DNA of 64,000 nucleotides from an uncultured Planctomycetales bacterium (GTDB lineage Bacteria; Omnitrophota; Gorgyraeia; Gygaellales; Profunditerraquicolaceae): the NCBI GenBank assembly GCA_964427405.1, contig CAYRUB010000008.1, forward strand, positions 31,428 through 95,427, written 5' to 3'. The notes below the pieces were generated by a model. That model was not told where the DNA came from and made no database searches. It saw only the letters and a program-made list of their open reading frames with translations. Of this stretch, positions 3,731 to 52,387 are shown piece by piece. The translations under genes were made by a program, and so were the position numbers. Positions within the stretch are counted from its first letter, which is position 1. Each line of letters opens with the position of its first letter.

Positions 3731-3768
3731 TTGTTTTCTCCTTTCGAATAATCAATACAAAAATAAAA

Positions 3769-3842
<74 letters not shown>

Positions 3843-3922
3843 ATACCAATTGCGCACCGGCGCAACTCCAATAAGCGCCGGGTGCTGCATCGCTCGCTAT
3901 TATCAACTGTAAAATTTCATTT

Positions 3923-4004
3923 TGGGCGGAAGAGGATTTGAACCTCCAAGGGTTACCCCAATAGCTCCTAAGGCTATCGCGTATGCCAATTCCGCCATCC
4001 GCCC
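3923..4004 (-). tRNA. tRNA-Leu (anticodon TAG), long variable arm
   Basis: Revcomp reads GGGCGGATGGCGGAATTGGCATACGCGATAGCCTTAGGAGCTATTGGGGTAACCCTTGGAGGTTCAAATCCTCTTCCGCCCA. Anticodon loop CTTAGGA; acceptor GGGCGGA/TCCGCCC. Confidence 0.8.
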
Positions 4005-4034
4005 GGAATGTTCCTCTTTCCACCTACTAATAAC

Positions 4035-4200
4035 TTTGATAGCCTGTGGTATTGCGGAGCGCGCATTAGAAAACTTTCGGCAAATGAGTGCGAGGAATTA
4101 CGATGAGCGAAGGCCGACGCAGTGTATGGTCGGCCGAAAACGAATCGTAAACCGAAGCACTCGGCGAAAGTTTTCAGCGCGCGGAACAATACCACAGGAT
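4035..4200. repeat. R1 intergenic repeat, copy 1 (diverged), between tRNA-Leu and tRNA-Lys; imperfect ~40-nt terminal inverted repeats
   Basis: Shares aaactttcggcaaatgagtgcgaggaattacg with copy 2 (9220-9255) and cgtaaaccgaagcactcggcgaaa with copy 3 (11770-11800). Ends cctgtggtattgcggagcgcgc / gcgcgcggaacaataccacagg are inverted repeats. Confidence 0.6.
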
Positions 4201-4211
4201 ATCAAATTATT

Positions 4212-4283
4212 CTGAGCCTCCCGCGACTCGAACGCGGCACAACCACATTAAAAGTGTGGTGCTCTACCTGATGAGCTAGAGGC
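4212..4283 (-). tRNA. tRNA-Lys (anticodon TTT)
   Basis: Revcomp reads GGGCCTCTAGCTCATCAGGTAGAGCACCACACTTTTAATGTGGTTGTGCCGCGTTCGAGTCGCGGGAGGCTCA. Anticodon loop CTTTTAA. Confidence 0.75.
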
Positions 4284-4289
4284 CCGAAT

Positions 4290-36770: not shown

Positions 36771-39700
36771 TTATTTGCCTTCTTTAACATCACACCTTAA
36801 GCATCTGCTTGCTTCAAAGCGGGCTTGTTTTAGTGATAACCCTAAAGAAACTTCCTTAAAATTATTCCGCCGTTTATTTATTTCCAGCTTTTCGCCATCT
36901 AATTTCTTTGACACCTTTGGTTCTAAGGGAACTTCAGATTTATAAGTAAATTGACGGAATAATTCGGAAAATCTTTCTCTTGAGCTTAACGCCAGGTCAA
37001 TTATCCTGGCAGCTTTCTTACCGTCAGACATTGCCTCAACTGCAGTCGCCGGCCCCATAGCTAAATCGCCGCCGGCATAAACCTTATCCAAGTTGGTTTT
37101 TAAATCAAACCTGCCTGCCTTAACTGTCCCATTCTGGTTAATCAGAATGCCACAACTCTTAATAAATCCTGCGTCTACCTTTTCTCCGATTGCTAGAATT
37201 ACAGTATCGCAAGGAATTTCAAAAACCTCATCAGTAGCTACAGGCCTTCTCCTTCCGGAAAGATCATAATCTCCTAATGTCATCCTGGTTACGATTAAAC
37301 CTTCCAATCTGCCGCGGGAATCCCCCTGTATGGTTTTAGGGCTGGCTAAAAATATAAACTTAACACCTTCAGATTCGGCCCCTTTAATCTCATCTTTATT
37401 TGCCGGCATATCTGCTTTTTCCCGCCGGTAAACAATGGTCACCTCGCTGCCGAACCTCAAGGCTGTGCGTGCGGCATCCACTGCGACATTACCGGCGCCA
37501 ATAACTACTGTCCTTTTACCGATAAGCGGATCCCTGCCGACTGCCACATCCCCCAGAAAAGCAGTGCCTGATAATACTCCTTTTAAACTTTCTCCCGGAA
37601 TACCCAAACCCATATTTTTATACGCCCCGGTTGCCAACAATACCGCATCCGACTCTTTAATCTTTTTATCTAATTCCTGTGCGCTGATTTTTTTGTTGCA
37701 TAAAATCTTTGCCCCCATCTTTTGCACAAAAGCAATTTCTTTTCTTAATACTGCCTTGGGAAGACGATATTCGGGAATACCATAACGCAAAACCCCGCCG
37801 GCTTCAGGATTAGCTTCATACACGCTCACATCATGGCCAAGCCGGCTAAGATAAAATGCCGCGGTTAAACCGCAGGGGCCTGCACCGATAATAGAAATCT
37901 TCTTGCCGGTCTTTGGCAGCCTTTCTTTGGCTAAGCGCTCAATAATCTTTGCATCTTTGCCGCCTTTATATACCTGATCCGCAATATATCTATGAATTTC
38001 GCCTTGCGAAACCGGATAATCAATATCCTCTCTGCGGCAGCGCATCTTACAATGAAAATGACAAATCCTTCCGCTCGAAGACGGAAAAGGATTATCCCGG
38101 ATAACGCAATCAAAGGCTTCGGCCAATTTGCTTTCTTTAAATAATTCCAGGAATCCCGGGATATTCATATGTAATGGGCAACTATTTTCACAAGGAGAAA
38201 CAAAAAGACCCACACATACCCCGCCGTCACAACGCTGCTCTTTGATATGTTCTTCATATTCGTGCTTAAAATATTTAAGAGTAGTCAGCACGGGATTTGG
38301 ACTGGTTTGCCCTAACCCGCAAAGGGCAGTATCTTTAATCACCGTCCCTAAATCTTCTAAACCCTGAATATCGCCTTGACTGGCTTTACCCTTTGTAATA
38401 TTAGTCAAGATATTTAAGCTTTGGGTCAGGCCTTCCCGGCAAGGCGTACATTTACCACAGGATTCGCTGGTGGTAAACTCCGTAAAATAGCGCGCCACAT
38501 CAACCATGCAATTATCATCATCCATTACCACCATTCCACCAGACCCCATGATCGCCCCCAAAGAGGCCAAGGTTTCATAATCAATCGGAGTATTAAATAA
38601 TGAAGCGGGGATACACCCTCCGGAAGGGCCGCCGCTCTGCACAGCCTTAATTTTTTTATTTGTGCCAGTTCCTGAGCCAATATTATAAATAAGTGTCTGT
38701 AAAGAAGCTCCTAAAGGTAACTCCACCAACCCGGTATTCTTGATCTTACCTACCAGGGAAAAAACTTTAGTTCCAGAGCTATTTTGAGTACCGGTCTGCG
38801 TAAACCAATCAGCGCCTTTTACCATAATAACCGGAATGTTACTCCAGGTTTCCACATTATTAATATTAGTAGGTTTATCCAGATATCCTTTTTGCGCAGG
38901 AAACGGCGGACGGGGATGCGGCCTTCCTGATTTACCCTCAAGCGAAGAAATTAATGCTGTTTCTTCTCCGCAGACAAATGCTCCCGCACCTTCTACCAAT
39001 TTAAGGTCAAAAGAAAAACCGCTATTAAATATATTACCGCCTAATAGGCCAAGCTCGCGGGCATCAGAAATTGCCTTTTTTATCCGCTCTACCGCCAAAG
39101 GATATTCTGCGCGTACATAAATAACACCGCTAGAAGCGCCCATCGCATAAGCGCCGATAATCATCCCCTCTAAAAGCATATGCGGGTCGCTCTCGCTTTC
39201 ATTACGGTTCATATACGCACCGGGATCGCCTTCATCGGCATTACAGATAATATATTTCTCCTCAGCATTCTCTTTGCGCATTAATTCCCATTTTATCCCT
39301 GTAGGAAAACCTGCTCCTCCCCTACCTCTTAGTTTTGATTTCTTCACCTCTGCAATTACAGCTTCCGGTTTAAGATCTGTTAAAACATTCAGCAAGGCCT
39401 GGTATCCGCCTACAGCAATATACTCTTCTATATCTTCGGGGTTAATCAAACCGCAATCCCTTAAAACAATTTTTTTCTGCCATTTAAAAAACGGGATTTC
39501 ATCCCAAGCGGGTATCTGTTCAAACCCCTTACCGTAAGAAACATGTCCAGTAAGATGATCCCATGTCTCAATTTTACATAAAGCCCTTTTAGGATTAATA
39601 TTACTGCTGGATATCTCCCTAACTATAGAATCTGCGTCTTTAGGCAAGACGCGGCTTAAAATAACTAACGGTTTGCCGGGCAAAGTAATATTAACTAAGG

Positions 39701-39917
39701 GCTCCTGAGCGCAAAAACCAAAACAACCTACTTTAGTTAAGACCGCCGGTACTTTTCGTTTTGCAAGCGCAACTTTAAAAGCCTGGAATAATTCCCGCGC
39801 ACCATTTCCAATACCACAAGTCCCCATGCCGACGGCGATACGCACGCATTTAGATAATAACTTCGCTGATCCTTTTTCTTTAATCAGTCGTAAGTCTTCG
39901 GCATTCCTAATAATCAT
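36771..39917 (-). CDS. Fusion protein: thioredoxin-like [2Fe-2S] domain + NuoF-like flavoprotein (HydB) + GltD/NfnB-like FAD/NAD(P) oxidoreductase
   Basis: 1048 aa. N-terminus [14 protein letters not shown]…[25 protein letters not shown] NuoF motif; 2x[4Fe-4S]; C-terminal half [49 protein letters not shown], aligning to nfnB (23946-25364). Confidence 0.75.
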   Translation of the reverse strand: [1048 protein letters not shown]

Positions 39918-40462
39918 TTCTTGATTCTCCGGGAGTTGATGCCTTTTATAATCTTGCGTATTTTCTCCGTAGTCATGCGGCTATAAATATTTCCGTCTAC
40001 CTCAATTACGGGAGCCAGCGCGCACTGGCCAAAACAGGCTACAGTTTTAATCGTGAACTTATTATCTTTGGTAGTCAGGAACGATTTACCATCCTGGCTA
40101 AAATCATCTTCTTTAAAACCGAATAAGTTGATTAAGAAATCCAGCAGGTTTTTTGATCCCCGGGTGTGACAGGCCGTGCCCCGACAGACAATAATTGAAT
40201 GCTCGCCCTGCGGCCTAAGGTTAAAGAAGGCATAGAAAGTAATAATGTTATATATTCTGGATAAAGGTACCTTGGCTTTCCGGGCTATATATTCTAAATC
40301 GCCCTGAGCAAGATATTTATGCTTATTTAATTTCTGGGCATCCTCTAGTATTCCCAGGAGCCTGCCCGGCCTATCTACGTAAAGAGAGATAATTTTATCC
40401 AACTCTACCCTATCCAAACAAGATTTTGTAATATCTTTTTCTTTTAACGCAACCTTACTCAT
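39914..40462 (-). CDS. NuoE-like [2Fe-2S] subunit of the second hydrogenase/Stn-like module
   Basis: 182 aa, CRGTACHTRGS…VACFGQCALAPVIEV. Confidence 0.7.
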   Translation of the reverse strand: MSKVALKEKDITKSCLDRVELDKIISLYVDRPGRLLGILEDAQKLNKHKYLAQGDLEYIARKAKVPLSRIYNIITFYAFFNLRPQGEHSIIVCRGTACHTRGSKNLLDFLINLFGFKEDDFSQDGKSFLTTKDNKFTIKTVACFGQCALAPVIEVDGNIYSRMTTEKIRKIIKGINSRRIKK

Positions 40463-40480
40463 CGTTTCCTTAAAATTATA

Positions 40481-41107
40481 TTATTTAGTCTTCTCCGTTA
40501 CATTAACAAAATAAATAAGATTTTCTAATTCAATCTCCAAATTAACATTATTAATAATACAACCTTCGGCGGCTTTAAGCCTTAGCGGCGCAAAATTAAG
40601 TATGCCTTTAATTCCCGAAGTACAGATTAAATCAACAGCCTGCTGGGCAGCTATATCCGGAACAACTAAAATAGCTATACGTATGCCATTAGATTTTATA
40701 AAAGACTTGACCTCCTCTAAAGGCAGGACCGGAACAGGATTAGAACGATTGATCTTAGCCGGGTCAATATCGAAACCGGCAACAATTTTTATGCCTTCTT
40801 TCTCAAATCCCCGATAGCGCATAAGCGCGCTGCCGATATGTCCGGCACCGACAACAATAACCTTCTGTAACTGATCCTTCCCGAGGATGCTGTTTAATTT
40901 CTCAAGCAGCGAATCAATCTGGTAACCTCCTTTTTTATTTCCGGAGATACCAAAAATTGAAAAATCTTTCCTTACCTGGGAAGCGGTGCCCCCTACGGCG
41001 TCTGCCAGGTTATCTGAGAAAACTTTCACAAAACCCAAGGCTTGTAATCTGTAAAGAGCGTTTTTATATCGGGAAAGCCGAATGATGCAGTTTTTATTAG
41101 TAATCAT
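40481..41107 (-). CDS. rex: Redox-sensing transcriptional repressor Rex
   Basis: 208 aa. N-terminal winged-helix RLSRYKNALYRL and Rossmann VIVVGAGHIGSAL NADH-binding domain. Confidence 0.8.
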   Translation of the reverse strand: MITNKNCIIRLSRYKNALYRLQALGFVKVFSDNLADAVGGTASQVRKDFSIFGISGNKKGGYQIDSLLEKLNSILGKDQLQKVIVVGAGHIGSALMRYRGFEKEGIKIVAGFDIDPAKINRSNPVPVLPLEEVKSFIKSNGIRIAILVVPDIAAQQAVDLICTSGIKGILNFAPLRLKAAEGCIINNVNLEIELENLIYFVNVTEKTK

Positions 41108-41109
41108 AT

Positions 41110-41127
41110 TGTTCTATTTTTCACAAT
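41110..41127. promoter_or_regulatory. Candidate Rex operator (TTGTTCTATTTTTCACAA) directly upstream of the rex ATG
   Basis: 14/18 match to the TTGTGAAatatTTCACAA consensus, with a perfect TTCACAA right half-site. Confidence 0.4.
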
Positions 41128-41187
41128 AACAAGACCAATATAACATTTCTGGTTTATTTGTCAAGAATATTTTTTAATTAAGTGATA

Positions 41188-42459
41188 TTATTTACTCCAA
41201 ACAAACCAAACAAATAAATACGCGGCAAATACTGCGGCAAAAGTAAAAGGAATTCCAATCTTCATAAAATCTTTAAGCCTGACTTCATATCCCTCTTTTT
41301 TAAGCAAGCCGCAAGTAACAATATTAGCCGAAGCGCCAATTGGCGTAATATTGCCTCCTAAACTTGCGCCGATAAGTATGCCAAAAAGAAACAATGGAGG
41401 GTTTACATTCAATTTATTAGCCATCTGGATTGCAACAGGTAACATAGCTGCTAAAAAAGGAACATTGTCCACAAACGCAGAGATAATGACTGAAATAAAT
41501 ACAAGTAACGTATAACCAAAGAAAATATTCCCCCCAATTACATTAGATAAGCATTGGGCGATGCTATCTACCCATCCGGTTAAAACAAGGCTTCCAACCA
41601 GAATAAATATTCCCATAAGAAATAACGTTGTATCCCAATCCAGCGATTTTATCAGTTCAAATACGCTCCTCTTATTCGCCATCTTCTCCCATATTGCTGA
41701 GATAACCCCCATAACCATACAAATAATCCCAGCCGCAGATGTGAAACCAGTATCAAAAAATGAGGAAACAGCAAGCAAAATTATCAATAGAACAAGCAAA
41801 ACAGTTGGGGTCCATGATTGCACCTTTTCTACAGGAACAACTTTAACCTTATGCCTCTCTTTCCGGAACAAAAACATCAAAACAAAAAATGAAGCAAGGG
41901 CGCCCAATTCAACCGCGAAAAATATGCTCGGTTTCCCTCTATAAAGAAAAAAATCACCGAAATTCATTTTCGTAAAACCTGCTAAAAGCATACTGGGAGG
42001 ATCTCCGATTAAAGTTGCCATACCTTGCAGATTACTTGATATTGCAATTGCAATCATCATTTTCATTGGATTAAGATTTATTTTACGGGCAAGCATTAAA
42101 GCAATAGGGGCAATGATAAGAACCGTTGCTACATTCTCCACAAAAGCAGAGATAAAACCAGTAAGGGCGCACAAAAGTAAAATTGCCCAAGCAGTATTCT
42201 TGGATTTATCAACAATAATCTCAGCAATAACCGCAGGCACTTTACTCCTCATAAAAACATCCGCCACGGCTAATGTCCCCACAAAAATCCCCATCACGTT
42301 CCAATTCACGGAGCCAAAAGCCTCAGGAAATGACAACACCCGGGTCATCAAAAGCAGGCCGGTTGCAATTATCGCAAACAGGGACCTTTTTCCAGGGAAC
42401 GCCACGAACAAAATATAGGCCAAAACAAAAAAGATAAACGCAATAATACTTCTATCCAT
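41188..42459 (-). CDS. ArsB/NhaD (CitMHS)-superfamily anion permease, ~12 TM
   Basis: 423 aa, highly hydrophobic, with internal duplication typical of ArsB/NhaD permeases. Its start is 2 nt after the stop of small ORF a. Confidence 0.65.
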   Translation of the reverse strand: MDRSIIAFIFFVLAYILFVAFPGKRSLFAIIATGLLLMTRVLSFPEAFGSVNWNVMGIFVGTLAVADVFMRSKVPAVIAEIIVDKSKNTAWAILLLCALTGFISAFVENVATVLIIAPIALMLARKINLNPMKMMIAIAISSNLQGMATLIGDPPSMLLAGFTKMNFGDFFLYRGKPSIFFAVELGALASFFVLMFLFRKERHKVKVVPVEKVQSWTPTVLLVLLIILLAVSSFFDTGFTSAAGIICMVMGVISAIWEKMANKRSVFELIKSLDWDTTLFLMGIFILVGSLVLTGWVDSIAQCLSNVIGGNIFFGYTLLVFISVIISAFVDNVPFLAAMLPVAIQMANKLNVNPPLFLFGILIGASLGGNITPIGASANIVTCGLLKKEGYEVRLKDFMKIGIPFTFAAVFAAYLFVWFVWSK

Positions 42460-42461
42460 TC

Positions 42462-42605
42462 CTATTTATTAACTTTATCCGAAGATTGAGTTTTATTTTC
42501 TTCTTTTCCGCCTTGATTACTTTTAACGATCATAAAAATGAAAAAAAATATTACTGCTGCCCCGAGAACATACACGGGCCAATCCTGCGCTAGATTACCT
42601 GTCAT
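42462..42605 (-). CDS. Small membrane peptide a (47 aa: MTGNLAQDWPVYVLGAAVIFFFIFMIVKSNQGGKEENKTQSSDKVNK), translationally coupled to the permease
   Basis: AGGGAGGA RBS 8 nt upstream. Single TM segment. TAG stop 2 nt before the permease ATG. Paralogous to peptide b. Confidence 0.5.
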   Translation of the reverse strand: MTGNLAQDWPVYVLGAAVIFFFIFMIVKSNQGGKEENKTQSSDKVNK

Positions 42606-42651
42606 CTTAGAATCCTCCCTTTCTTATTTTATCAACGATTCCATTCCCTAA

Positions 42652-42726
42652 TCAAATAAATAATACAAAATATGCCTACGCCTAAAAACACATAAATGGT
42701 CCAACCCTGCCATACGCTTCCGGTCA
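42652..42726 (-). CDS. Small membrane peptide b (24 aa: MTGSVWQGWTIYVFLGVGIFCIFI)
   Basis: AAGGAAGGGGA RBS. Shares the MTGxxxxxWxxYV(L/F)G motif with peptide a. Coordinates ±1. Confidence 0.4.
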
Positions 42727-42755
42727 TTCCAACTCCCCTTCCTTCTTTACTTTAT

Positions 42756-42866
42756 TTAGTCTTGCTTCTTGATTTTGGCTTTTCTAGTATTTATAAAATA
42801 AAAAAACACCGAAAACAAAATTGCCAATAACAATACTCCCAGATTTTGCAATACATGAAGCCACAT
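42756..42866 (-). CDS. Small membrane peptide c (36 aa: MWLHVLQNLGVLLLAILFSVFFYFINTRKAKIKKQD)
   Basis: Perfect AGGAGG RBS 5 nt upstream. One TM helix plus a basic tail. Confidence 0.45.
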   Translation of the reverse strand: MWLHVLQNLGVLLLAILFSVFFYFINTRKAKIKKQD

Positions 42867-42874
42867 GAAGCCTC

Positions 42875-42985
42875 CTATTTTTTAAGCCGTTTTAATACCT
42901 GAGAATCACCGCTTATGCCTTCTTTAAATATCCTGCTATAACAAAAAACTAGCATGCTCAAGATAAACGTCCAGGAAATTATCAT
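42875..42985 (-). CDS. Possible small peptide e (36 aa: MIISWTFILSMLVFCYSRIFKEGISGDSQVLKRLKK)
   Basis: The ORF ends in the TAG that forms part of the RBS of peptide c. Weak RBS of its own. Confidence 0.25.
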   Translation of the reverse strand: MIISWTFILSMLVFCYSRIFKEGISGDSQVLKRLKK

Positions 42986-43019
42986 AAATATCCAGCCGCT
43001 CAACCTCAATCCACACCCC

Positions 43020-43118
43020 TTATCTAATGTTATGAGTAATCGCAAAAATCACACACAAAACCCCTACCAAAATACAAACTCCGAATATAATAAATATAAT
43101 CCGCATTCCTTTATCCAT
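43020..43118 (-). CDS. Small membrane peptide d (32 aa: MDKGMRIIFIIFGVCILVGVLCVIFAITHNIR)
   Basis: AGGAGG RBS 4 nt upstream of the ATG. One TM helix. Confidence 0.45.
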   Translation of the reverse strand: MDKGMRIIFIIFGVCILVGVLCVIFAITHNIR

Positions 43119-43133
43119 TCTTCCTCCTGGCAA

Positions 43134-43192
43134 TAAAAAAACCATCTCGCATTAACATGCAAGATGGCGGCCCGACCATCTGAATCCTCCGG
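43134..43192 (-). terminator. Conserved double-hairpin plus U-tract motif (copy 1) after treT and upstream of peptide d
   Basis: Minus strand: AGATGG-tcgggccg-CCATCT hairpin, TGCAT-gtta-ATGCA hairpin, then GATGGTTTTTTT. Core catgcaagatggcggcccgaccatct is identical to the copy at 48171-48236. Confidence 0.4.
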
Positions 43193-43229
43193 AAATGCAC
43201 CCGCAGTTCCGAACCCTTATCCTAATAAA

Positions 43230-44444
43230 TTAACAGAGATGAACGATATCTTCGGGATAATATAACGAAAGAAATAATAACATATAATCCCGAAGATGGC
43301 GCGTAATCAGAAAGTTATTTTTTATATGCTCCCTTCCATTTGCTCCTAATTTCTTGGCGTATTCCGGACTGCTTAAGAGCTGTTTTATAGCAAAACTGGC
43401 TCCTTCGATTGAATAACAAAGCAAACCTGAATATTTGTGTTTTATTTGCAAAGGAATACCCCCGACATTTGAAGCTACAACAGGCTTTGCTTTCCATAAG
43501 GCCTCTGCGACCGTTAATCCGAATCCTTCCTTAAGGGACTTCTGGACAATTATATCTGCTGCCCTTTGTAAGGCATTGACCTCTATATCATTCTGGGGCA
43601 ATAGTAGAATATGAATATCCTGATCGTTCTTAGCTTTTTCTTGAACTTCCGATAAGACCTTGAATCCTTCCGGATCATCTTCGGCAGTGCCACCGGCCAG
43701 TATCAACTGACAATCAATATATTTTTTCACCTGCAGGTAGGCGTCAATTACACCTAACGGGTCTTTTAAACGATCAAAGCGGGATATTTGAATAAGGATT
43801 GGTTTATCTTTTTTTATATTGTATTTTCTTAAGACCAAGTTTATCGTTTCCTCCGGTAATTCCCTGTTTTTATCGCTTAATGGATCAATGGAAGGAGGAA
43901 TTAAAAATTGCCTAATGGGTAATTTCCGGGAAAAAGCTGGCGCAGAAAATACCGCTGAATCGTACTGAGTGATAAAATCCATAAGAAATCCCCAAACCTT
44001 TTCATTGGGGTCAGATACGTCAACATGACAACGCCAAAGCCATTTATTAATAGTCTTCTTTTTTATCAGTGCTATTGGCTGCGGATCGTGAACAAAGACT
44101 ATGTCTCCATAGGTATCAATATTTTCGATATTCTGCTGGCTTGTTTCCATAAATATCTCAAAATCCCTTTGAGTTATTTCTTCCGCTCTGCCATGCAAAG
44201 CATTATGAAACTTTTTAGTCACTTCAAAAAACTGTTCTCCGCCCTTTATTACGTCCCATTTGGTATCTACTCCCAATTCCCTCAATAGCGGAACCATCCG
44301 GTTTAATATCTCAGCGACTCCGCCACCCACCGGGGTAGAATTTATGTGTTGGACGACCTTGCCTTTTAACCGTTCGCCGAGTAATTTTAAATCATCAATA
44401 ACCGCCTGCCCTACCAAGGGAATATATTCTTCTATTTTTGCCAT
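43230..44444 (-). CDS. treT: Trehalose glycosyltransferring synthase TreT (GT4)
   Basis: 404 aa. VNSTPVGGGVAEILNRMVPLLRELGVDTKWDVIKGGEQFFEVTKKFHNALHG aligns closely to my recollection of archaeal/Thermotoga TreT (VNSTSFGGGVAEILHSLVPLL…FHNALQG). …PPSIDPLS… and …EGFGLTV… are also shared. Confidence 0.75.
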   Translation of the reverse strand: MAKIEEYIPLVGQAVIDDLKLLGERLKGKVVQHINSTPVGGGVAEILNRMVPLLRELGVDTKWDVIKGGEQFFEVTKKFHNALHGRAEEITQRDFEIFMETSQQNIENIDTYGDIVFVHDPQPIALIKKKTINKWLWRCHVDVSDPNEKVWGFLMDFITQYDSAVFSAPAFSRKLPIRQFLIPPSIDPLSDKNRELPEETINLVLRKYNIKKDKPILIQISRFDRLKDPLGVIDAYLQVKKYIDCQLILAGGTAEDDPEGFKVLSEVQEKAKNDQDIHILLLPQNDIEVNALQRAADIIVQKSLKEGFGLTVAEALWKAKPVVASNVGGIPLQIKHKYSGLLCYSIEGASFAIKQLLSSPEYAKKLGANGREHIKNNFLITRHLRDYMLLFLSLYYPEDIVHLC

Positions 44445-45116
44445 TTAATCAGCTATCCTTCTTGCCACTATTTGGATAATCGTATTTCTTAAATCCTCTA
44501 AAGTACGGGTATAAGGATCAAAACCGGAGATTTCACCGGCTAATTCTTTATCGCCTAAAGAGTTCTCTATCCAATATGAGAAATCATTAGTCGGCTTTTC
44601 AAGACGAAGCCGCGCTTCAAAAATATGAAAATAAATAGAATCAAGGGTAATCTTTTTCAAAACCTCAATAAACTCCTTTAAATCATAAGCAATATAGTTT
44701 GTCGGCAGGATAAAACTGACTGATTTAATAAAATGAAACTCTTCTCCGGGCCTGGCAAATTTCAACTTGGCAAACGGGCTATCCCTTAAATAGTCCTCAA
44801 TGGTTAAAGAAATTTTCTCTCGTAAATCACGAATGGTTGAATATTGCATGGTATCAATACTAACCAATTTTTCCCCAAGTTCATCTTCTCCAAGAACTTC
44901 CATAACCCAATAAGAGAAGTCATTGGGAGGCTCGGGAGAAAGATACTGATGCTGCTGCAGGAATCTATGGGTATGGTGATAAATGCAGGAACCGGGGACT
45001 TCCTTAATCAGAGCCAAAAGCTGGCCTAAGGTGGTGGCCCGCAATCCGGTCAACTCCGATAAGTGCAATCTCGTACAAAATTTAAATGGCTCTTTTGCTT
45101 TTGCTAATTTAATCAT
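44445..45116 (-). CDS. Uncharacterised protein with two tandem ~40-aa NDFSYW…LGxxELG repeats, embedded in the trehalose operon
   Basis: 223 aa. PPNDFSYWVMEVLGEDELGEKL… and KPTNDFSYWIENSLGDKELAGEI… repeats. The stop abuts the treT start and the start lies 6 nt after the otsB stop. Confidence 0.5.
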   Translation of the reverse strand: MIKLAKAKEPFKFCTRLHLSELTGLRATTLGQLLALIKEVPGSCIYHHTHRFLQQHQYLSPEPPNDFSYWVMEVLGEDELGEKLVSIDTMQYSTIRDLREKISLTIEDYLRDSPFAKLKFARPGEEFHFIKSVSFILPTNYIAYDLKEFIEVLKKITLDSIYFHIFEARLRLEKPTNDFSYWIENSLGDKELAGEISGFDPYTRTLEDLRNTIIQIVARRIAD

Positions 45117-45122
45117 GGCTAT

Positions 45123-45917
45123 CTATTTTTTGAATTCAGATATCAAACGTAAAAATTTAATTACCTCTCTGGGGTTCTTTAAATAGTAATTCGCCGCAGA
45201 ATTGCCGGGCTTCCCCACAAAAACAGTCAACCCTCTTCTTTTTAAAACCCTAAAAGCGTCTTCATCAGTTACGTCGTCTCCGATATAAATGGGTAAGACA
45301 TTTCTTTTTCCAAAAATGAATTGCTGTTTTTCTAGAAACCATAAAACAACTCTCCCTTTATCCCATTTAACTGGAGGTTTTATCTCATAAACTTTTTTAC
45401 CGGAATTAACTTTTATTTTGTCGCTCATCATATAGGGATTAGTAACTTCGTAAACAATCTTATCGAATACAGGCATATCCTTTTTACTAACTAAACGGTA
45501 GTGAATACTTAGGGTTAACCCCTTATCTTCAATTAGCGCGCCTTTGATGCCAAAGAACCGCTTCTGTATATTTGTAGCGATGTTTCGTAAAATTGATCTC
45601 AATCGCGGTGAAACCTGGCTTTCAAATTTAATCTTCGGGCCTTCAATCTCTAAGCCGTGATTACCTGCATAAATAATACCATCTACCCCTACTATATTTC
45701 TTATGTCTACCAGCTTCCTACCGCTGATAATACCTATTTTACAATAAAGACTTCCGGACAATTTCTGTAATAATCCTTTTGCATCCTTACGGATAATTGC
45801 CTTACTAGGAGTCTCTACAATAGGCGTTAATGTCCCATCGTAATCCAGCAAAAGTAAAATAAATTTATTGCTCAATAGTTCTTTTATCTTACTAAATTGC
45901 GGGAATAAATATTCCAT
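45123..45917 (-). CDS. otsB: Trehalose-6-phosphate phosphatase (HAD-IIB)
   Basis: LLLLDYDGTLTP DxDGT motif. 264 aa. 2 nt after the otsA stop. Confidence 0.8.
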   Translation of the reverse strand: MEYLFPQFSKIKELLSNKFILLLLDYDGTLTPIVETPSKAIIRKDAKGLLQKLSGSLYCKIGIISGRKLVDIRNIVGVDGIIYAGNHGLEIEGPKIKFESQVSPRLRSILRNIATNIQKRFFGIKGALIEDKGLTLSIHYRLVSKKDMPVFDKIVYEVTNPYMMSDKIKVNSGKKVYEIKPPVKWDKGRVVLWFLEKQQFIFGKRNVLPIYIGDDVTDEDAFRVLKRRGLTVFVGKPGNSAANYYLKNPREVIKFLRLISEFKK

Positions 45918-45919
45918 AT

Positions 45920-48157
45920 CTAAACCTTCCCCAATGATGTCAATTCTGTAATAATATTCCCTGCCCAGCGATAAATATTGTTCTCCGAAATAACTTTGCG
46001 CATTTTTCCCATGCGTCTTGTTTTCTCGTCCTGGGGCATCTGGAGAGCTAATTTTATACTGTCGGCAAATTCCTCTATTGAATAGGGATTTACCTGAATA
46101 GCATCGGGAAGCTCTCTGACTGCGCCGGTAAATTGACTTAATATAAGAGCTCCGGAGAAGTCACTTTTTGTTGCTACGTATTCTTTAGCCACAAGGTTCA
46201 TGCCATCATGAAGCGAGCTTACAATGCAAAGATCAGCCATTTTATAAAAAGGCTCGATTTCATCTAAAGAAAAATGCCTCTTAAGGTAAATAATTGGCTT
46301 CCAGCTGGAATCGGAATACTTCCAGTTAGTTTTCTCGATTAATTCGTCAATTTCTGCCATAAGATCATGATAACGCTTTATATGTACACGGCTTGGAGCG
46401 GCAAGCTGAACAAAAACAAATTTTTTCTTATATTCTGGATATTTTTCTAAAAATCTGTCTATAGCTTGCACTCTTTCAACAATGCCCTTTGTATAATCGA
46501 TCCTGTCAACTCCCAAACCTATGATTTTACCTTCCAGGTCAAACTCTTTTTTAATTTTATCTATCTCTAGTTTTATATCCGCGTCTTTCTCAGCTTTATT
46601 TAAATTCACGCTAACACTAATCGGAAACGCCCGCACAAAAGTTTCTTTTTCAGAACGAACAATGCTGAATTTTTCTATATCAACCCTTGATTCAAGAAGC
46701 CTGTTGACTGTATCTAAGAAATTATTACAATGATTCTGAACATGAAAACCTATTAAATCACATCCAAGCATTCCTTCCAGAATCTCTTTACGGTAAGGAC
46801 AAATGGAAAATGCATCTGGAGTAGGCCAGGGAATATGCCAAAAAAGTGCAATTACCGCATCCGGACGTTTTTCCTTAATCATCTTCCCGAGCAAAGTGAA
46901 ATGGTAATCTTGAATAAATACAAAAGGATGTTTAGCGGGAAGTTCCTCCAAAACAGAATCCGCAAACTTCTGATTTACTTTTTTGTAAGCTTGCCAATCT
47001 GACTCACGAAAAACCGGCCTCGTATGCGTATTGTGACACAGCGGCCATAACCCCTCATTGGAAAAACCATAATAGTAGCCATCTTCCTCTTCTTTATTCA
47101 ACCAAACCCTCTTAAGAATATACCGTATATCTTTAGGCGGAACACCTAATTTGTCCTTTGAATTTACGAACTTCTTATCCGCATTACCGCCACCATGAGC
47201 AATCCATGTACCGCCGCAAGCGCATAGAACCGGATGAATCGCAGTAACCACGCCGCTTGCAGGCCTGATGTATTTTTCTAAACCAGTTGCTTCATCAACA
47301 ACATGCATATAGGGCTCACGGTTAGATACTACAAATAAAGCTTTTTCTCCTAATTTCGCTCGAATAAGATCTTTTAATTTTGATTCTGTCCATGTCTCTT
47401 CTTTTTCTAGGCGGGCAGACGCTTCATCAGAAATTGTCCTACGGGCAACGCGCAAACTCAATGCCGCCTGCTCAACTTCACTGGCAAGCTTACCCAGATC
47501 CCCTTTTTCTCTAATAGGGTGCGCTTCGTCAGTTTCGCCTCTCTGGAAGAACTTAAACCAATCTGTTAAACGTTGTATTGGCAGAGCAAAAATCTGCCTG
47601 TGCAGAAGAATAGATAAAACAAAAATAACCACAACTAAAATTATTAACGTTGAACTGATACGTCTCCAAATCTCAGTTAACCTTGCGAAGACATAGGAAG
47701 TATCATGTATAACCTCAACCATTCCCAAAAGCTGCCCTTCATCATCAACTATGGGTAGAACATAGCTATAGACTTGATAGTCTTTGAATTTCTCTAATTC
47801 TCCCCGCGGAATTTTATTCGCTATAACATCCTTAATATAAGGCTTGCCTTTTTCTTTCCAATCGGCGAATCTTTTAGTAAGCGCGATGATGTTTCCATCT
47901 TTATCGTAAATAACGCAACCCTGTAATCTTTCGCGAGTCTCAAATTTCTCCGCAAGATAATTTGCATTTTTTAAATCATTGGCTAAAAGCACATGCTTCA
48001 CCGATAACTCCATGCTTTCGGCAACGATCCTGGCTTTTCGCTTTAAGTCGTCAGTAAGCTTCTCTTCTTCTAAACGCGTCTGAAAGAAACCAAAGAGCGT
48101 AAAGGCCACGGAAACAATAATTAAAATGGGTAAAATAAATAAAAGAACTCTTCTCAT
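45920..48157 (-). CDS. otsA: Trehalose-6-phosphate synthase (GT20) fused to an N-terminal membrane sensor module (TM - ~140-aa extracytoplasmic domain - TM - HAMP-like linker)
   Basis: 745 aa. TM1 LLFILPILIIVSVAFTLFGFF, TM2 LIILVVVIFVLSILL, amphipathic linker LPIQRLTDWF…LASEVEQAALSL. From ~res 260, the GT20 core FVVSNREPY…, WIAHGGG, …NEGLWPL… and …LFWHIPWPT…. Confidence 0.8.
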   Translation of the reverse strand: MRRVLLFILPILIIVSVAFTLFGFFQTRLEEEKLTDDLKRKARIVAESMELSVKHVLLANDLKNANYLAEKFETRERLQGCVIYDKDGNIIALTKRFADWKEKGKPYIKDVIANKIPRGELEKFKDYQVYSYVLPIVDDEGQLLGMVEVIHDTSYVFARLTEIWRRISSTLIILVVVIFVLSILLHRQIFALPIQRLTDWFKFFQRGETDEAHPIREKGDLGKLASEVEQAALSLRVARRTISDEASARLEKEETWTESKLKDLIRAKLGEKALFVVSNREPYMHVVDEATGLEKYIRPASGVVTAIHPVLCACGGTWIAHGGGNADKKFVNSKDKLGVPPKDIRYILKRVWLNKEEEDGYYYGFSNEGLWPLCHNTHTRPVFRESDWQAYKKVNQKFADSVLEELPAKHPFVFIQDYHFTLLGKMIKEKRPDAVIALFWHIPWPTPDAFSICPYRKEILEGMLGCDLIGFHVQNHCNNFLDTVNRLLESRVDIEKFSIVRSEKETFVRAFPISVSVNLNKAEKDADIKLEIDKIKKEFDLEGKIIGLGVDRIDYTKGIVERVQAIDRFLEKYPEYKKKFVFVQLAAPSRVHIKRYHDLMAEIDELIEKTNWKYSDSSWKPIIYLKRHFSLDEIEPFYKMADLCIVSSLHDGMNLVAKEYVATKSDFSGALILSQFTGAVRELPDAIQVNPYSIEEFADSIKLALQMPQDEKTRRMGKMRKVISENNIYRWAGNIITELTSLGKV

Positions 48158-48170
48158 TTTTCACCTCAAC

Positions 48171-48236
48171 AAAACAAAAATCGCCACCCTGCATTCCCAT
48201 GCAAGATGGCGGCCCGACCATCTAACGATCCTCTGG
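48171..48236 (-). terminator. Conserved double-hairpin plus U-rich motif (copy 2) between atpC and otsA
   Basis: Same AGATGG-tcgggccg-CCATCT and TGCAT-ggga-ATGCA hairpins, then GGGTGGCGATTTTTGTTTTGTT, about 15 nt before the otsA ATG. Confidence 0.4.
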
Positions 48237-48342
48237 GAATATTTACTTATTCCCAAACCACTTATACTAAATTATATAATGCAATATACCACGATTAGAT
48301 AGAAATTCAACAAATTAATAGAGTAATATTTTATATTTATAC

Positions 48343-48594
48343 TTATAAAAGGAGGGTTGCCTGATTTCTAAGAACTTCGATAAACCCGCCCGGGCAAGAG
48401 TCTATTATGCTGGTTTTACCTGACGGGGTGCGTAAGGTAATCTTACCACAAGTAAGCCTGGCCACCAAAGGAGCATGTTCGGCCAAAACACCCAGATAGC
48501 CTGATTCTGATGGCGCAATCAGGGAAACTGCCTCTCCCTCATATATCGTTTTATTGCTAGAATAGATTCCTACTTTAAAAACTTTAGCAGCCAT
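48343..48594 (-). CDS. atpC: F1 ATP synthase epsilon subunit (short form, beta-sandwich only)
   Basis: 83 aa, epsilon N-domain-like, last gene of the atp operon. Confidence 0.75.
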   Translation of the reverse strand: MAAKVFKVGIYSSNKTIYEGEAVSLIAPSESGYLGVLAEHAPLVARLTCGKITLRTPSGKTSIIDSCPGGFIEVLRNQATLLL

Positions 48595-48599
48595 TTTCC

Positions 48600-50859
<2,260 letters not shown>

Positions 50860-50863
50860 ATTA

Positions 50864-52387
50864 TTAGGATTGGCTCAGGAACTCTTTCTTAGAATCAGCG
50901 ATCAATTTGTCCAGTTTACCCCTTAAATCTGAATCTAAATCATTCTTTAACTCTATCTCCTGCGTAATCCCGGGATAATTTTTCTCGATGAATTTATAAA
51001 GATATGCCTCGAATTTCTTAACCGCGCCAACCGGCAAATCATCAAGGCAACCATTGGTGCCGGCGTAAATAATGATTATCTGCCTGGCTGTTTCAAGCGG
51101 CTCATACTGCACCTGCTTTAGAATTTCAACCATCCTCTCACCGCGGGTAAGCTGCGCACGTGTCGTCTTATCCAGGTCTGTACCGAATTGCGTAAAAGTT
51201 ACCAGCTCGCGGTATTGCGCAAGATCCAGCCTTAGTTTTGAAGCAACCTGGCGCATAGCTTTGCTTTGCGCCTTACCTCCTACGCGGGAAACTGATAAAC
51301 CTACATTTACCGCAGGCCGCACCCCGGCATAAAATAAATCGCTTTCCAAATAGATCTGGCCATCGGTAATAGAGATTACATTAGTAGGAATGTAGCTTGA
51401 TATATCCCCAGCTTGAGTTTCAACAATGGGAATAGCGGTTATGGAACCTGCGCCTAATTCATCATTTAATTTAGCGGAACGCTCCAGAAGCCTTGAATGC
51501 AAATAAAAAATATCTCCCGGGTATGCCTCTCTTCCCGGAGGACGCCTTAAAAGTAAAGATAACTGCCGGTATGCCTGGGCATGCTTGGATAGATCATCGT
51601 AAATTACCAGGACATGCTTTCCTGAATACATAAACTCTTCCGCCATGGCTGTCGCCGCGTAAGGCGCAAGATATTGCAAGCTTGCCGAAGCGCGAGAAGA
51701 AGCGCTGACAATTGTGGTATACTCCATTGCCCCGTGCTTTTTGAGCACCTCGTTTACCGCTACTACGCTGGATAATTTTTGCCCGATTGCGCAATAAATG
51801 CAGTAAACATCTTTTCCTTTTTGATTAATGATTGTATCTATGGCAATGGCGGTTTTACCGGTCTGACGGTCCCCGATAATCAATTCACGCTGTCCGCGGC
51901 CAATAGGAGTCATGGCATCTATGGCTTTTACCCCGGTCTGCAATGGTTGGTTTACCGGCTGCCTCTCTACTACATTAGGAGCACTGGATTCTATCGGCCT
52001 GGACTTTTGCGTATTCACCTTACCCTTGCCGTCGATTGGCCGGCCCAAACCATTAACTACCCTGCCAACAAGCGCCTCTCCTACCGGAACCTGCACAATC
52101 TTACCGGTACGCTTAACAATATCCCCCTCCCTGATACTCTGATCGGGATTATCCGTACCAAAGATTACCACCCCTGCGCTGTCCTCTTCCAGATTCAAAA
52201 CCATACCCATGATATTATCTGAAAACTGTACCAACTCACCCATCATCACGTCATCTAATCCGTAAATACGCGCAATGGTATCCCCAACCTGGATAACCGT
52301 TCCTATAGACTCGGTGCGCAACCGGGTTTTATATTTTTCCAGTTCTTTCTTAATTATGGAAGTAACTTCTTCCGGTTTTAAAACCAT
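50864..52387 (-). CDS. atpA: F1 ATP synthase alpha subunit
   Basis: GDRQTGKT Walker A, 507 aa. Confidence 0.95.

Follow-up and report, generated by a model that had tools for sequence, protein, structure and literature searches.

A WalK-like sensor module fused to an OtsA-type trehalose-6-phosphate synthase in uncultured Omnitrophota, a probable one-component receptor-enzyme

The stretch of DNA analysed here, which we call the window, comprises 64,000 nucleotides of contig CAYRUB010000008.1 (assembly GCA_964427405.1), from an uncultured bacterium of the Omnitrophota lineage. On its reverse strand, at 45920..48157, the window encodes a 745-residue protein, sensor-otsA, in which a receptor-like membrane module is joined to a trehalose-6-phosphate (T6P) synthase of glycosyltransferase family GT20. 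A first-pass annotation of the window had described this as a receptor layout with an enzyme as output in place of a kinase, and had suggested direct osmotic or ligand control of trehalose synthesis. We find it probable, at roughly 0.6, that sensor-otsA is a one-component transmembrane receptor-enzyme with regulated catalysis, encoded in a salt/osmotic-stress operon. The observations behind this reading are the architecture of the protein, its homologies and conservation, its intact catalytic residues, the design of a riboswitch and its expression platform ahead of the gene, and the operon context.

Results

The N-terminal module resembles that of WalK-type receptors

Hydropathy of sensor-otsA (Kyte-Doolittle, 19-residue mean) exceeded the threshold of 1.6 in exactly two segments, at about residues 1-29 and 162-195, corresponding to transmembrane helices TM1 and TM2 (Table 1). 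The same pattern was found in the family, for which we assembled 82 full-length fusions; genomic loci supplied 70 of these and protein searches the other 12. A TM1 peak near residues 1-30 was present in 81 of them and a peak at the TM2 position in all 82, the sole member lacking the TM1 peak (L044) being translated from a sequence cut at a contig edge. Most peaks reached 2.2-3.4, with TM1 of protein P0226 at 1.95; about six Acidobacteriota-labelled members had extra weak peaks of 1.67-1.88 inside GT20. Sensor-otsA starts with MRR and its count of lysine plus arginine is higher after TM2 than before, which fits a topology with both termini inside (N-in/C-in). This topology is also demanded by the enzyme, since GT20 substrates are cytoplasmic.

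We modelled residues 1-270 as a monomer with AlphaFold2 (AF2) from a 42-sequence alignment. The predicted local distance difference test score (pLDDT) was 85.2 overall and 85-93 over residues 30-160. In the model, a long helix (2-48) carries TM1 on into a periplasmic helix and is followed by a five-stranded alpha/beta core (80-152). A single helix (154-205) then comprises a periplasmic helix, TM2 and AS1, the first helix of a HAMP, and a loop (206-219) leads to a helix formed by AS2 and an extension (220-251) and to a last helix at 258-269. The long N-terminal helix, five-stranded antiparallel sheet and flanking helices, lying between two TM helices, are the hallmarks of the PDC fold, and the periplasmic domain as predicted has a single-Cache/PDC fold. 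Comparison of the model with the PDB by Foldseek gave as top match the integrative model of B. subtilis WalK (9a5d_A, 260 columns, E 2.5e-10). Next came the extracellular domain of S. aureus WalK (4ywz, 7dud and 5is1; TM-score 0.67-0.78, root-mean-square deviation 2.7-4.3 Å, 18-21% identity), with 4ywz and 7dud superposing best (0.76-0.78, 2.7-2.8 Å), and further down the sensor domains of CitA (2j80, TM-score 0.75), DcuS (3by8, 0.72), KinD and DctB. The hydropathy peaks and the predicted fold bear out the layout first proposed, TM1, an extracytoplasmic domain of about 140 residues and TM2, as well as the suspicion that residues 26-165 are Cache- or PAS-like.

Profile and sequence searches pointed to the same relatives. 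Individual scans of 46 family members at E<=0.01 matched sCache_3_2 in 27, dCache_1 in 19 and HAMP in seven. The N-terminal part of the NCBIfam WalK histidine-kinase model aligned with residues 4-245 (E 2.6e-11), and weaker NCBIfam matches fell on the N-termini of YfiN/DgcN, CreC and AtoS. An exhaustive phmmer search with residues 1-265 against 1.84 billion representatives returned 693 matches, 167 of them below 1e-10. Long matches over residues 1-262, at 20-30% identity, formed two groups: further GT20 fusions (P0216, P0226, P0244, P0281, P0301, P0304 and P0349) and textbook receptors. The latter included kinases of the order TM-sensor-TM-HAMP-HisKA-HATPase (P0285, P0314, P0335, P0338, P0353 and P0356; Pfam HAMP 31-58 bits), a PAS-GAF kinase (P0331) and two GGDEF cyclases (P0255 and P0260). 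Judged by these matches, the N-terminal module is homologous to WalK-type kinases and diguanylate cyclases, and the output domain alone differs. Since its nearest relatives outside GT20 are HAMP kinases and GGDEF cyclases, the idea of a receptor whose kinase is replaced by an enzyme was well founded. Neither DHp/HisKA nor HATPase_c domains were present in the window protein according to Pfam and NCBIfam, and sensor-otsA is not a kinase. In one fusion, P0226 (913 residues, Logan assembly), the periplasmic module occurs in tandem duplicate, so that TM1 and the second module are separated by about 160 additional residues and TM2 lies at about 325-352; such duplication is typical of evolving sensors.

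The linker after TM2, initially called HAMP-like, was compared with HAMPs at the profile level. Alignment by hhalign of family residues 186-262 with the HAMPs of eight kinase relatives scored 97.7% (E 2.2e-12) over 67 gapless columns and matched the canonical P-I..L / G / DE-[IL]-G-x-L-A pattern. One family member, P0349, exceeded the Pfam HAMP gathering score (26.5 against 25). The segment LPIQRLTDWFKFF...LASEVEQAALSL is a HAMP homologue by this profile-profile comparison, and we classify it as a genuine, divergent HAMP. It lies directly after TM2, conserves P193 (81/82), G207 (76/82) and E227 (82/82), and has a heptad pattern of hydrophobic residues at 190/194/197/201/204 and 221/224/228/231/235/238/242. 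We make no claim for an S-helix 'ERT' signature after the HAMP, where conservation was limited to A238-R239.

A fixed-length helical path connects TM2 to the enzyme

We measured spacings between landmark residues in the 82 fusions. The distance from W164 to W200 (TM2 and AS1) was 36 residues, that from P193 to W200 (within AS1) seven, and that from W256 to N279 (junction helix and strand beta-1) 23, each in 82/82 proteins. AS2 and its extension, from E227 to W256, spanned 29 residues in 77 proteins and 28 in five. Length variation along the path from TM2 to GT20 was essentially confined to the HAMP connector loop (W200 to E227, 25-32 residues). W200, E227, W256 and L261 were invariant in all 82 proteins, and T257 was invariant in a 46-sequence alignment. 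Mean pairwise identity, calculated for 35 representatives below 70% identity, was 0.29 in TM1, 0.32 in the periplasmic domain, 0.27 in TM2, 0.34 in AS1, 0.18 in the connector, 0.48 in AS2, 0.43 in the junction and 0.60 in GT20. A rigid transmission element would be predicted to keep its helical register fixed and its AS2 and junction conserved, whereas a passive tether would not. In our view the fixed length of this helical path is the strongest indirect evidence that sensor and enzyme may be coupled.

Solved OtsAs lack a helix corresponding to the one that bears W256-T257 and L261, and their alignments with sensor-otsA start at residue 268 or later. This helix joins strand beta-1 of GT20 directly, and the C-terminal NREP loop of beta-1 holds Arg280, which binds glucose-6-phosphate (G6P). 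In known OtsA structures, helix alpha-1 and its loop, next to the NREP loop, shift by up to 12 Å on closure (PMC6879718). A mechanical route from HAMP to the acceptor site is thus plausible.

Several results weigh against a regulated receptor, and some of them would suit a different role for the module. The Pfam sCache_3_2 match on residues 31-149 scored 24.8 bits, below the gathering score of 28.4, and the Pfam HAMP model (PF00672) gave no match to the window protein at E<=0.1. An AF2 model of the full-length monomer had pLDDT of just 58-69 in the HAMP region. No MscS channel was found in the window by tblastn (no match of more than 150 aligned residues), where atpC lies upstream of the fusion. 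The weakest step is the coupling of HAMP to GT20, which is speculative. Characterised HAMP outputs, that is kinases, cyclases and GGDEF proteins, work by re-registering a dimeric catalytic unit, and a GT-B active site confined to a single protomer offers no obvious counterpart to this. The module could instead be a membrane tether or scaffold, left over from a histidine kinase, that anchors and dimerises OtsA without signalling, for example beside MscS channels, transporters or envelope glycolipid synthesis. In keeping with this, no ligand pocket was identified in the predicted periplasmic domain, nor a signal; at 0.32 identity this domain is the most divergent of the folded regions; the intra-protomer active site leaves no established route for control by a HAMP; and the adjacency of MscS genes in related loci (see below) could mean co-localisation instead of sensing. 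A simple anchor, however, needs neither a folded domain of 140 residues nor a HAMP, and both are kept, the latter with P193, G207, E227 and L235. Tethers normally tolerate changes in length, whereas here variation is found just in the connector loop, and the register between TM2 and GT20 is kept exactly across the 82 proteins despite sensor identities to the window protein down to 26% (tblastn on source loci). The lineage of P0226 has, moreover, duplicated the periplasmic module in the manner of a sensor. We therefore regard a mere tether as unlikely and favour a signalling receptor.

The GT20 domain retains the OtsA active site

Pfam GT20 (PF00982) matched residues 274-740 with 415.4 bits against a threshold of 32.5 (E 3.8e-124), covering positions 3-472 of the 473 in the profile. 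The enzyme core thus starts at about residue 272-274, somewhat later than the position near 260 given in the first-pass annotation. The best NCBIfam models were those of the OtsA family, PRK14501 with 489 bits and TIGR02400, the best single-function model, with 432.7 bits; PRK10117 gave 267. TIGR02400 missed its equivalog cutoff of 564.85 bits, and we place the domain in a divergent, distinct OtsA clade, not in the equivalog as defined by NCBI.

The best match of solved structure was OtsA of M. thermoresistibile (MtrOtsA, 5jij, E 1e-84). In MtrOtsA the acceptor is bound by R18, Y90, D144 and R324, and the donor by R286, K291, D385 and E393, with backbone contacts at G386-L389; H199 is listed in addition (PMC6879718). 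The acceptor residues align with R280, Y362, D417 and R590 of the window protein, the donor residues with R552, K557, D651, E659 and G652-L655, and H199 with H472. All of them are invariant in the 46-sequence alignment, whose members share 42-94% identity. Nothing in the sequence hints at a loss of catalytic competence, and the adjacent otsB (Table 1) supports a function as T6P synthase.

The clade carries GT20 motifs of its own, NREPY.H and WPLCH..H.RP, and three invariant cysteines, C453, C477 and C644. C374 is conserved in at least 90% of sequences, and the four cysteines C374, C453, C477 and C644 lie within the motifs WPLCH..H.RP, ICP and HCNNF; the aligned MtrOtsA has no cysteine at the positions of C374, C453 and C477. 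These cysteines may form a clade-specific metal or redox site.

These private motifs and cysteines, together with the sub-cutoff scores of both TIGR02400 and the GgpS model (317 against 569), could also mean that the domain is not a T6P synthase. Its product could be a different glucosyl-phosphate, for instance glucosylglycerol-phosphate, or it could serve as a non-catalytic domain sensing T6P or sugar; plant class II T6P synthase (TPS) proteins provide the model for a non-catalytic, regulatory GT20. OtsA models nevertheless score far above GgpS, and every residue that binds G6P or nucleoside diphosphate (NDP)-glucose in OtsA of characterised structure is invariant. A bona fide trehalose-phosphatase gene lies directly next to the fusion, here and in most related loci, and TreT is encoded within the same operon. 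A different product or a purely regulatory domain is in our judgement very improbable, and we treat the output of sensor-otsA as T6P synthesis.

The fusion recurs across uncultured bacteria

More than 100 database clusters of 745-residue homologues, at 75-95% identity, were found in NCBI, JGI, ENA and Logan assemblies. Where these are named, the name is 'Candidatus Omnitrophota'. One IMG annotation reads 'trehalose-6-phosphate synthase/HAMP domain-containing protein', so the domain combination has been noticed at least once by automated annotation. We also searched GTDB, taking a single genome for each species, with the clade-specific junction motif [LF][FIY]VV[SA]NREP[YV]. At least 600 stretches matched and 479 of them were confirmed as relatives. 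N-terminal coverage was examined in the best 80 of the 479, and all counts of related loci given here refer to these 80. In them the N-terminal module was covered over residues 1-286 or nearly so, and sensor and GT20 were contiguous and in frame in 80/80. Other GT20 proteins with N-terminal TM extensions, as the first-pass annotation had envisaged, are thus present in at least 80 species-representative metagenome-assembled genomes (MAGs) and possibly in several hundred.

All related loci came from MAGs, and their labels were mostly Omnitrophota. Others were Acidobacteriota/Acidiferrum/Terriglobales, Syntrophus/Syntrophaceae, Elusimicrobia, Nitrospirales, Gemmatimonadetes, Ignavibacteriaceae and Krumholzibacteriia, and one locus lies on a 5.27-Mb Bacteroidales chromosome. 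These labels are as deposited and some are perhaps unreliable, especially those of Planctomycetes and Actinomycetota bins at >60% identity. An Acidobacteriota member (PYV27934.1) was also found by protein search; a profile search seeded with distant fusions recovered mainly the close Omnitrophota family and hardly widened the taxonomic range.

In the window, the open reading frame (ORF) starts with ATG, has zero internal stops and is preceded by the ribosome-binding site GAGGTG 6 nt 5' of the start codon. Many N-terminal database entries are short and named 'hypothetical protein, partial', at first sight suggesting a separate gene; they are contig-end truncations, and with a continuous ORF, more than 100 independent clusters from different studies, contiguity in 80/80 loci from different MAGs and phyla and an invariant junction length, an artefact of assembly or annotation joining a sensor fragment to otsA, be it through a frameshift, a missed stop or two separate genes, is hardly conceivable.

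An nhaA-I riboswitch precedes a trehalose operon

The 5' leader of sensor-otsA contains an nhaA-I aptamer, and a second copy lies 3' of treT, ahead of five tiny hydrophobic ORFs and a CitMHS permease; each overlaps an intrinsic terminator (Table 1). In both copies the 3' arm of stem P2, GCCAUCU, doubles as the 5' arm of the terminator. Because this arm is shared, aptamer folding and termination are mutually exclusive, which makes this an ON-switch design. The two riboswitch-terminator copies also explain an exact 13-mer, GCCATCTTGCATG, that flanks the operon and had been considered as a mobile-element footprint. Among the 76 related loci with enough upstream DNA, at least 34 carry the conserved nhaA-I aptamer core, in coding-strand orientation, ahead of the fusion or of an msc-fusion pair. 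The terminator platform was present in 35 of 46 core-motif matches from the related loci and the window, and RNAalifold on 35 copies recovered both P1 and P2, where 9 of the 13 pairs showed compensatory changes.

The nhaA-I RNAs are Li+ riboswitches, and rare variants with a terminator platform respond to Na+ ('Na+-II'); the latter were reported from Deltaproteobacteria only, upstream of unknown genes (White et al., PMC9646797). Na+-dependent antitermination was shown for the terminator-platform design in Desulfobulbus propionicus, and the nucleotide that sets ligand specificity is C54 or U54 of the nhaA-I construct (PMC9646797). Of 944 nhaA-I-associated genes, 16 are otsA, three mscS, six nhaD and five 'citrate transporter' (PMC9646797, Suppl. 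Table I). The window copies share with nhaA-I and Na+-II RNAs a full model match and a terminator platform overlapping P2. They differ from the published Na+-II variants in occurring in Omnitrophota-type genomes, upstream of the sensor-otsA operon and of a CitMHS permease. By analogy, the ligand of the window copies would be Na+ or Li+, acting by cation-ON antitermination.

The genes otsB, DUF5752 and treT are on the same strand as sensor-otsA and tightly packed 3' of it, and the order sensor-otsA/otsB/orfY-like/treT recurs in most of the 80 loci, distant ones included. MscS-family genes (Pfam MS_channel) adjoin the fusion in 25 of the 80, where they lie directly ahead of it or separate otsA from otsB. 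The osmotic or salt side of the early proposal gains independent support from the nhaA-I leader and these MscS genes, whereas we infer the modulation of catalysis and the cue that is sensed.

Examples of MscS genes are those of L008 (7804-8850), L045 (5009-5977), L042 (4994-5992) and L011 (8307-9281). In several loci the riboswitch stands ahead of an msc-otsA pair, at a distance of about 1.1 kb from otsA. Besides an OrfY-like factor, the operon encodes two routes to trehalose, OtsAB and TreT; the DUF5752 protein is a full-length homologue of T. tenax OrfY and is always paired with a TreT-type synthase.

The five tiny ORFs between the second riboswitch and the permease (42462-43145, minus strand) encode 41, 56, 36, 31 and 47 residues; two of them share MTG..W..YV..G..IF, and none has a Pfam match. 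A Rex-like regulator (CoA_binding and Put_DNA-bind_N; 40481-41107, minus strand) is directly downstream of the permease, followed by ORFs of 182 and 1048 residues (the latter at 36771-39917), by eye like NuoE and a NuoF-pyridine-nucleotide oxidoreductase fusion. Immediately upstream of the trehalose operon is the atp operon (atpA/G/D/C, 48343-52387), and in locus L028 atpC and atpD are likewise near the trehalose cluster, on the opposite strand. GC content is 0.378-0.393 over 40001-48000, a stretch comprising the trehalose operon and its nearest downstream genes, and mostly about 0.41-0.455 in the rest of the window, where two other 2-kb bins drop to 0.39-0.40. Three clustered tRNA genes (Rfam RF00005) lie at 3768-4285 on the minus strand. 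A promoter-like site was noted 5' of the riboswitch leader; such sites were found as often as expected from shuffled sequence, which makes them weak evidence for a promoter there.

Table 1. Positions in the window of sensor-otsA domains, regulatory RNA elements and neighbouring genes
Feature	Position	Strand	Evidence and remarks
Promoter-like site, TTGAAT-16-TATATT, TG before -10	48283..48310	-	5' of riboswitch leader; consensus scan, weak
nhaA-I (RF03057) aptamer, sensor-otsA 5' leader	48204..48260	-	Rfam cmscan 48.7 bits against gathering 37, model 1-55 of 55
Intrinsic terminator, 13-bp stem, 7 GC, U-tract	48172..48211	-	5' arm overlaps 3' arm of aptamer P2 (expression platform)
TM1/signal anchor, residues ~4-25, MRR in front	48083..48148	-	hydropathy peak 2.98; family conservation; AF2 helix 2-48
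Predicted periplasmic single-Cache/PDC sensor domain, residues 26-165	47663..48082	-	sub-threshold Pfam sCache_3_2, AF2, Foldseek
TM2, residues ~166-188	47594..47662	-	hydropathy peak 3.05; continuous AF2 helix 154-205 into HAMP AS1
HAMP, residues 189-240: AS1 (P193, W200), G207, variable connector, AS2 (E227, L235)	47438..47593	-	hhalign
Helical extension and junction, residues 241-273; W256-T257 and L261 invariant	47339..47437	-	fusion-specific; not in soluble OtsA
GT20 trehalose-6-phosphate synthase domain, residues 274-745	45923..47338	-	Pfam GT20, 415 bits
otsB, trehalose-6-phosphate phosphatase	45123..45917	-	TIGR00685 174 bits against cutoff 68; starts 2 nt past otsA stop
DUF5752/OrfY-like	44445..45116	-	Pfam DUF5752 E 6e-67; PDB 4cso 'ORFY protein, transcription factor' E 3e-21
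treT, TreT-type trehalose synthase (GT4)	43230..44444	-	Pfam TreT_GT1 and Glycos_transf_1; 6zj4 E 5e-124; 2x6q E 2e-101
Second nhaA-I (RF03057), 3' of treT	43162..43216	-	Rfam 48.9 bits against 37, full model 1-55
Terminator of second nhaA-I copy, 12 bp and U-tract	43141..43168	-	overlaps riboswitch
CitMHS-family permease	41188..42459	-	Pfam CitMHS E 7.8e-59; 3' of second riboswitch

Discussion

Our analysis suggests how sensor-otsA may work. The WalK-like module, with an N-in TM1, Cache/PDC domain, TM2 and HAMP, would continue as a helix into the GT20 synthase. The protein would be a homodimer, because HAMP function requires a dimer. The Cache domain would sense an envelope or extracytoplasmic cue, for which ionic strength, osmolarity or a small ligand are possible, and the signal would pass from TM2 through the HAMP four-helix bundle to the fixed-length helical junction. 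The junction sits on beta-1 of GT20 with Arg280, of the NREP loop, at the C-terminal end of that strand, so that the relayed signal could alter acceptor binding, lobe closure or the arrangement of the two GT20 domains and thereby set the rate of T6P formation. Transcription of the operon would be gated by the nhaA-I class riboswitch through antitermination. There would then be two levels of control, an intracellular cation acting at the RNA and an extracytoplasmic cue acting at the protein. That this amounts to a new class of HAMP output, in which a Cache-HAMP receptor allosterically drives a GT-B OtsA with neither phosphorelay nor second messenger and jointly with a cation riboswitch, is a tentative proposal to which we give slightly less than even odds.

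The OtsAs known so far are soluble and about 450-500 residues long, and are controlled either at transcription or through cytoplasmic effectors acting allosterically at tetramer interfaces (PMC6879718). Compared with soluble OtsA/TPS from E. coli (1gz5, 1uqt) and M. thermoresistibile (5jij), sensor-otsA aligns over the whole GT-B domain, keeps the donor and acceptor residues and has otsB adjacent. It differs in its 273 extra N-terminal residues, made up of two TM helices, periplasmic domain, HAMP and junction helix, and in its clade-specific cysteine and histidine motifs. With WalK/YycG kinases, on the other hand, it shares sequence and fold over the N-terminal 245-260 residues, whereas the cytoplasmic PAS, DHp/HisKA and HATPase domains are missing and the output is a biosynthetic enzyme. 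Having no kinase domains, sensor-otsA needs neither phosphotransfer nor a response regulator.

Closer in principle are the HAMP-GGDEF proteins of the YfiN/DgcN type and the HAMP-adenylyl cyclases, in which a TM sensor and HAMP likewise drive an enzyme within one polypeptide. HAMP-coupled enzymes other than kinases include adenylyl cyclases such as mycobacterial Rv3645, and GGDEF proteins (P0255 and P0260) are among the direct relatives of the sensor-otsA sensor module. The cyclases, however, produce second messengers and are active only as catalytic dimers, whereas sensor-otsA would make a metabolite on the way to an osmoprotectant. As the GT-B active site is contained in one protomer, its coupling must differ from that of the cyclases.

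A parallel to the operon is found in Thermoproteus tenax (T. tenax), whose msc-gt-tpsp operon groups trehalose genes with a mechanosensitive channel and a GT4, and whose TPS is controlled post-translationally by a partner; the proposed stress model has trehalose made on upshock and released through the channel on downshock (PMC3634074). The DUF5752 protein of the window is a homologue of OrfY (4cso), and its GT4 a homologue of TreT (6zj4). In T. tenax, orfY presumably stands beside treT. The two systems differ in that the T. tenax TPS is fused to the T6P phosphatase (TPP), soluble and activated by complex formation with the GT, whereas in the window the TPS forms one polypeptide with a membrane receptor, and the TPP is a protein of its own. 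We saw no evidence in the window operon for TPS activation by a GT. Together with the nhaA-I leader and the adjacency of MscS genes, the msc-gt-tpsp parallel supports a salt/osmotic reading of the operon.

No published description of a HAMP- or sensor-GT20 fusion was found among the full texts searched; one paper on Omnitrophota refers to 'trehalose synthesis' and no more. Receptor-enzyme fusions through HAMP are already known; what is new is the compatible-solute synthase of family GT20 as output, together with a cation riboswitch and frequent linkage to MscS. Protein-level responses to osmotic or ionic conditions are known for the transporters ProP, BetP and OpuA. To our knowledge, hardly any biosynthetic enzyme is controlled osmotically at the protein level. 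A fusion of receptor and OtsA would make the question of how a stimulus leads to solute synthesis directly testable, with T6P formation in proteoliposomes as readout.

If our reading is right, a GT-B metabolic enzyme would join kinases, chemoreceptors, cyclases and phosphatases as a HAMP output, and the active site within one protomer would call for a new coupling mechanism. The 16 cases of otsA associated with nhaA-I RNAs, so far unexplained, gain a concrete gene architecture and operon, and nhaA-I variants bearing a terminator are extended beyond the Deltaproteobacteria. The Omnitrophota are ultrasmall, largely uncultured bacteria. Sensor-otsA and its riboswitch would form a minimal, self-contained osmostress circuit with two independent sensors, widespread in uncultured Omnitrophota and in several other phyla, and suggest that the stress physiology of the Omnitrophota may be hard-wired with few regulators.

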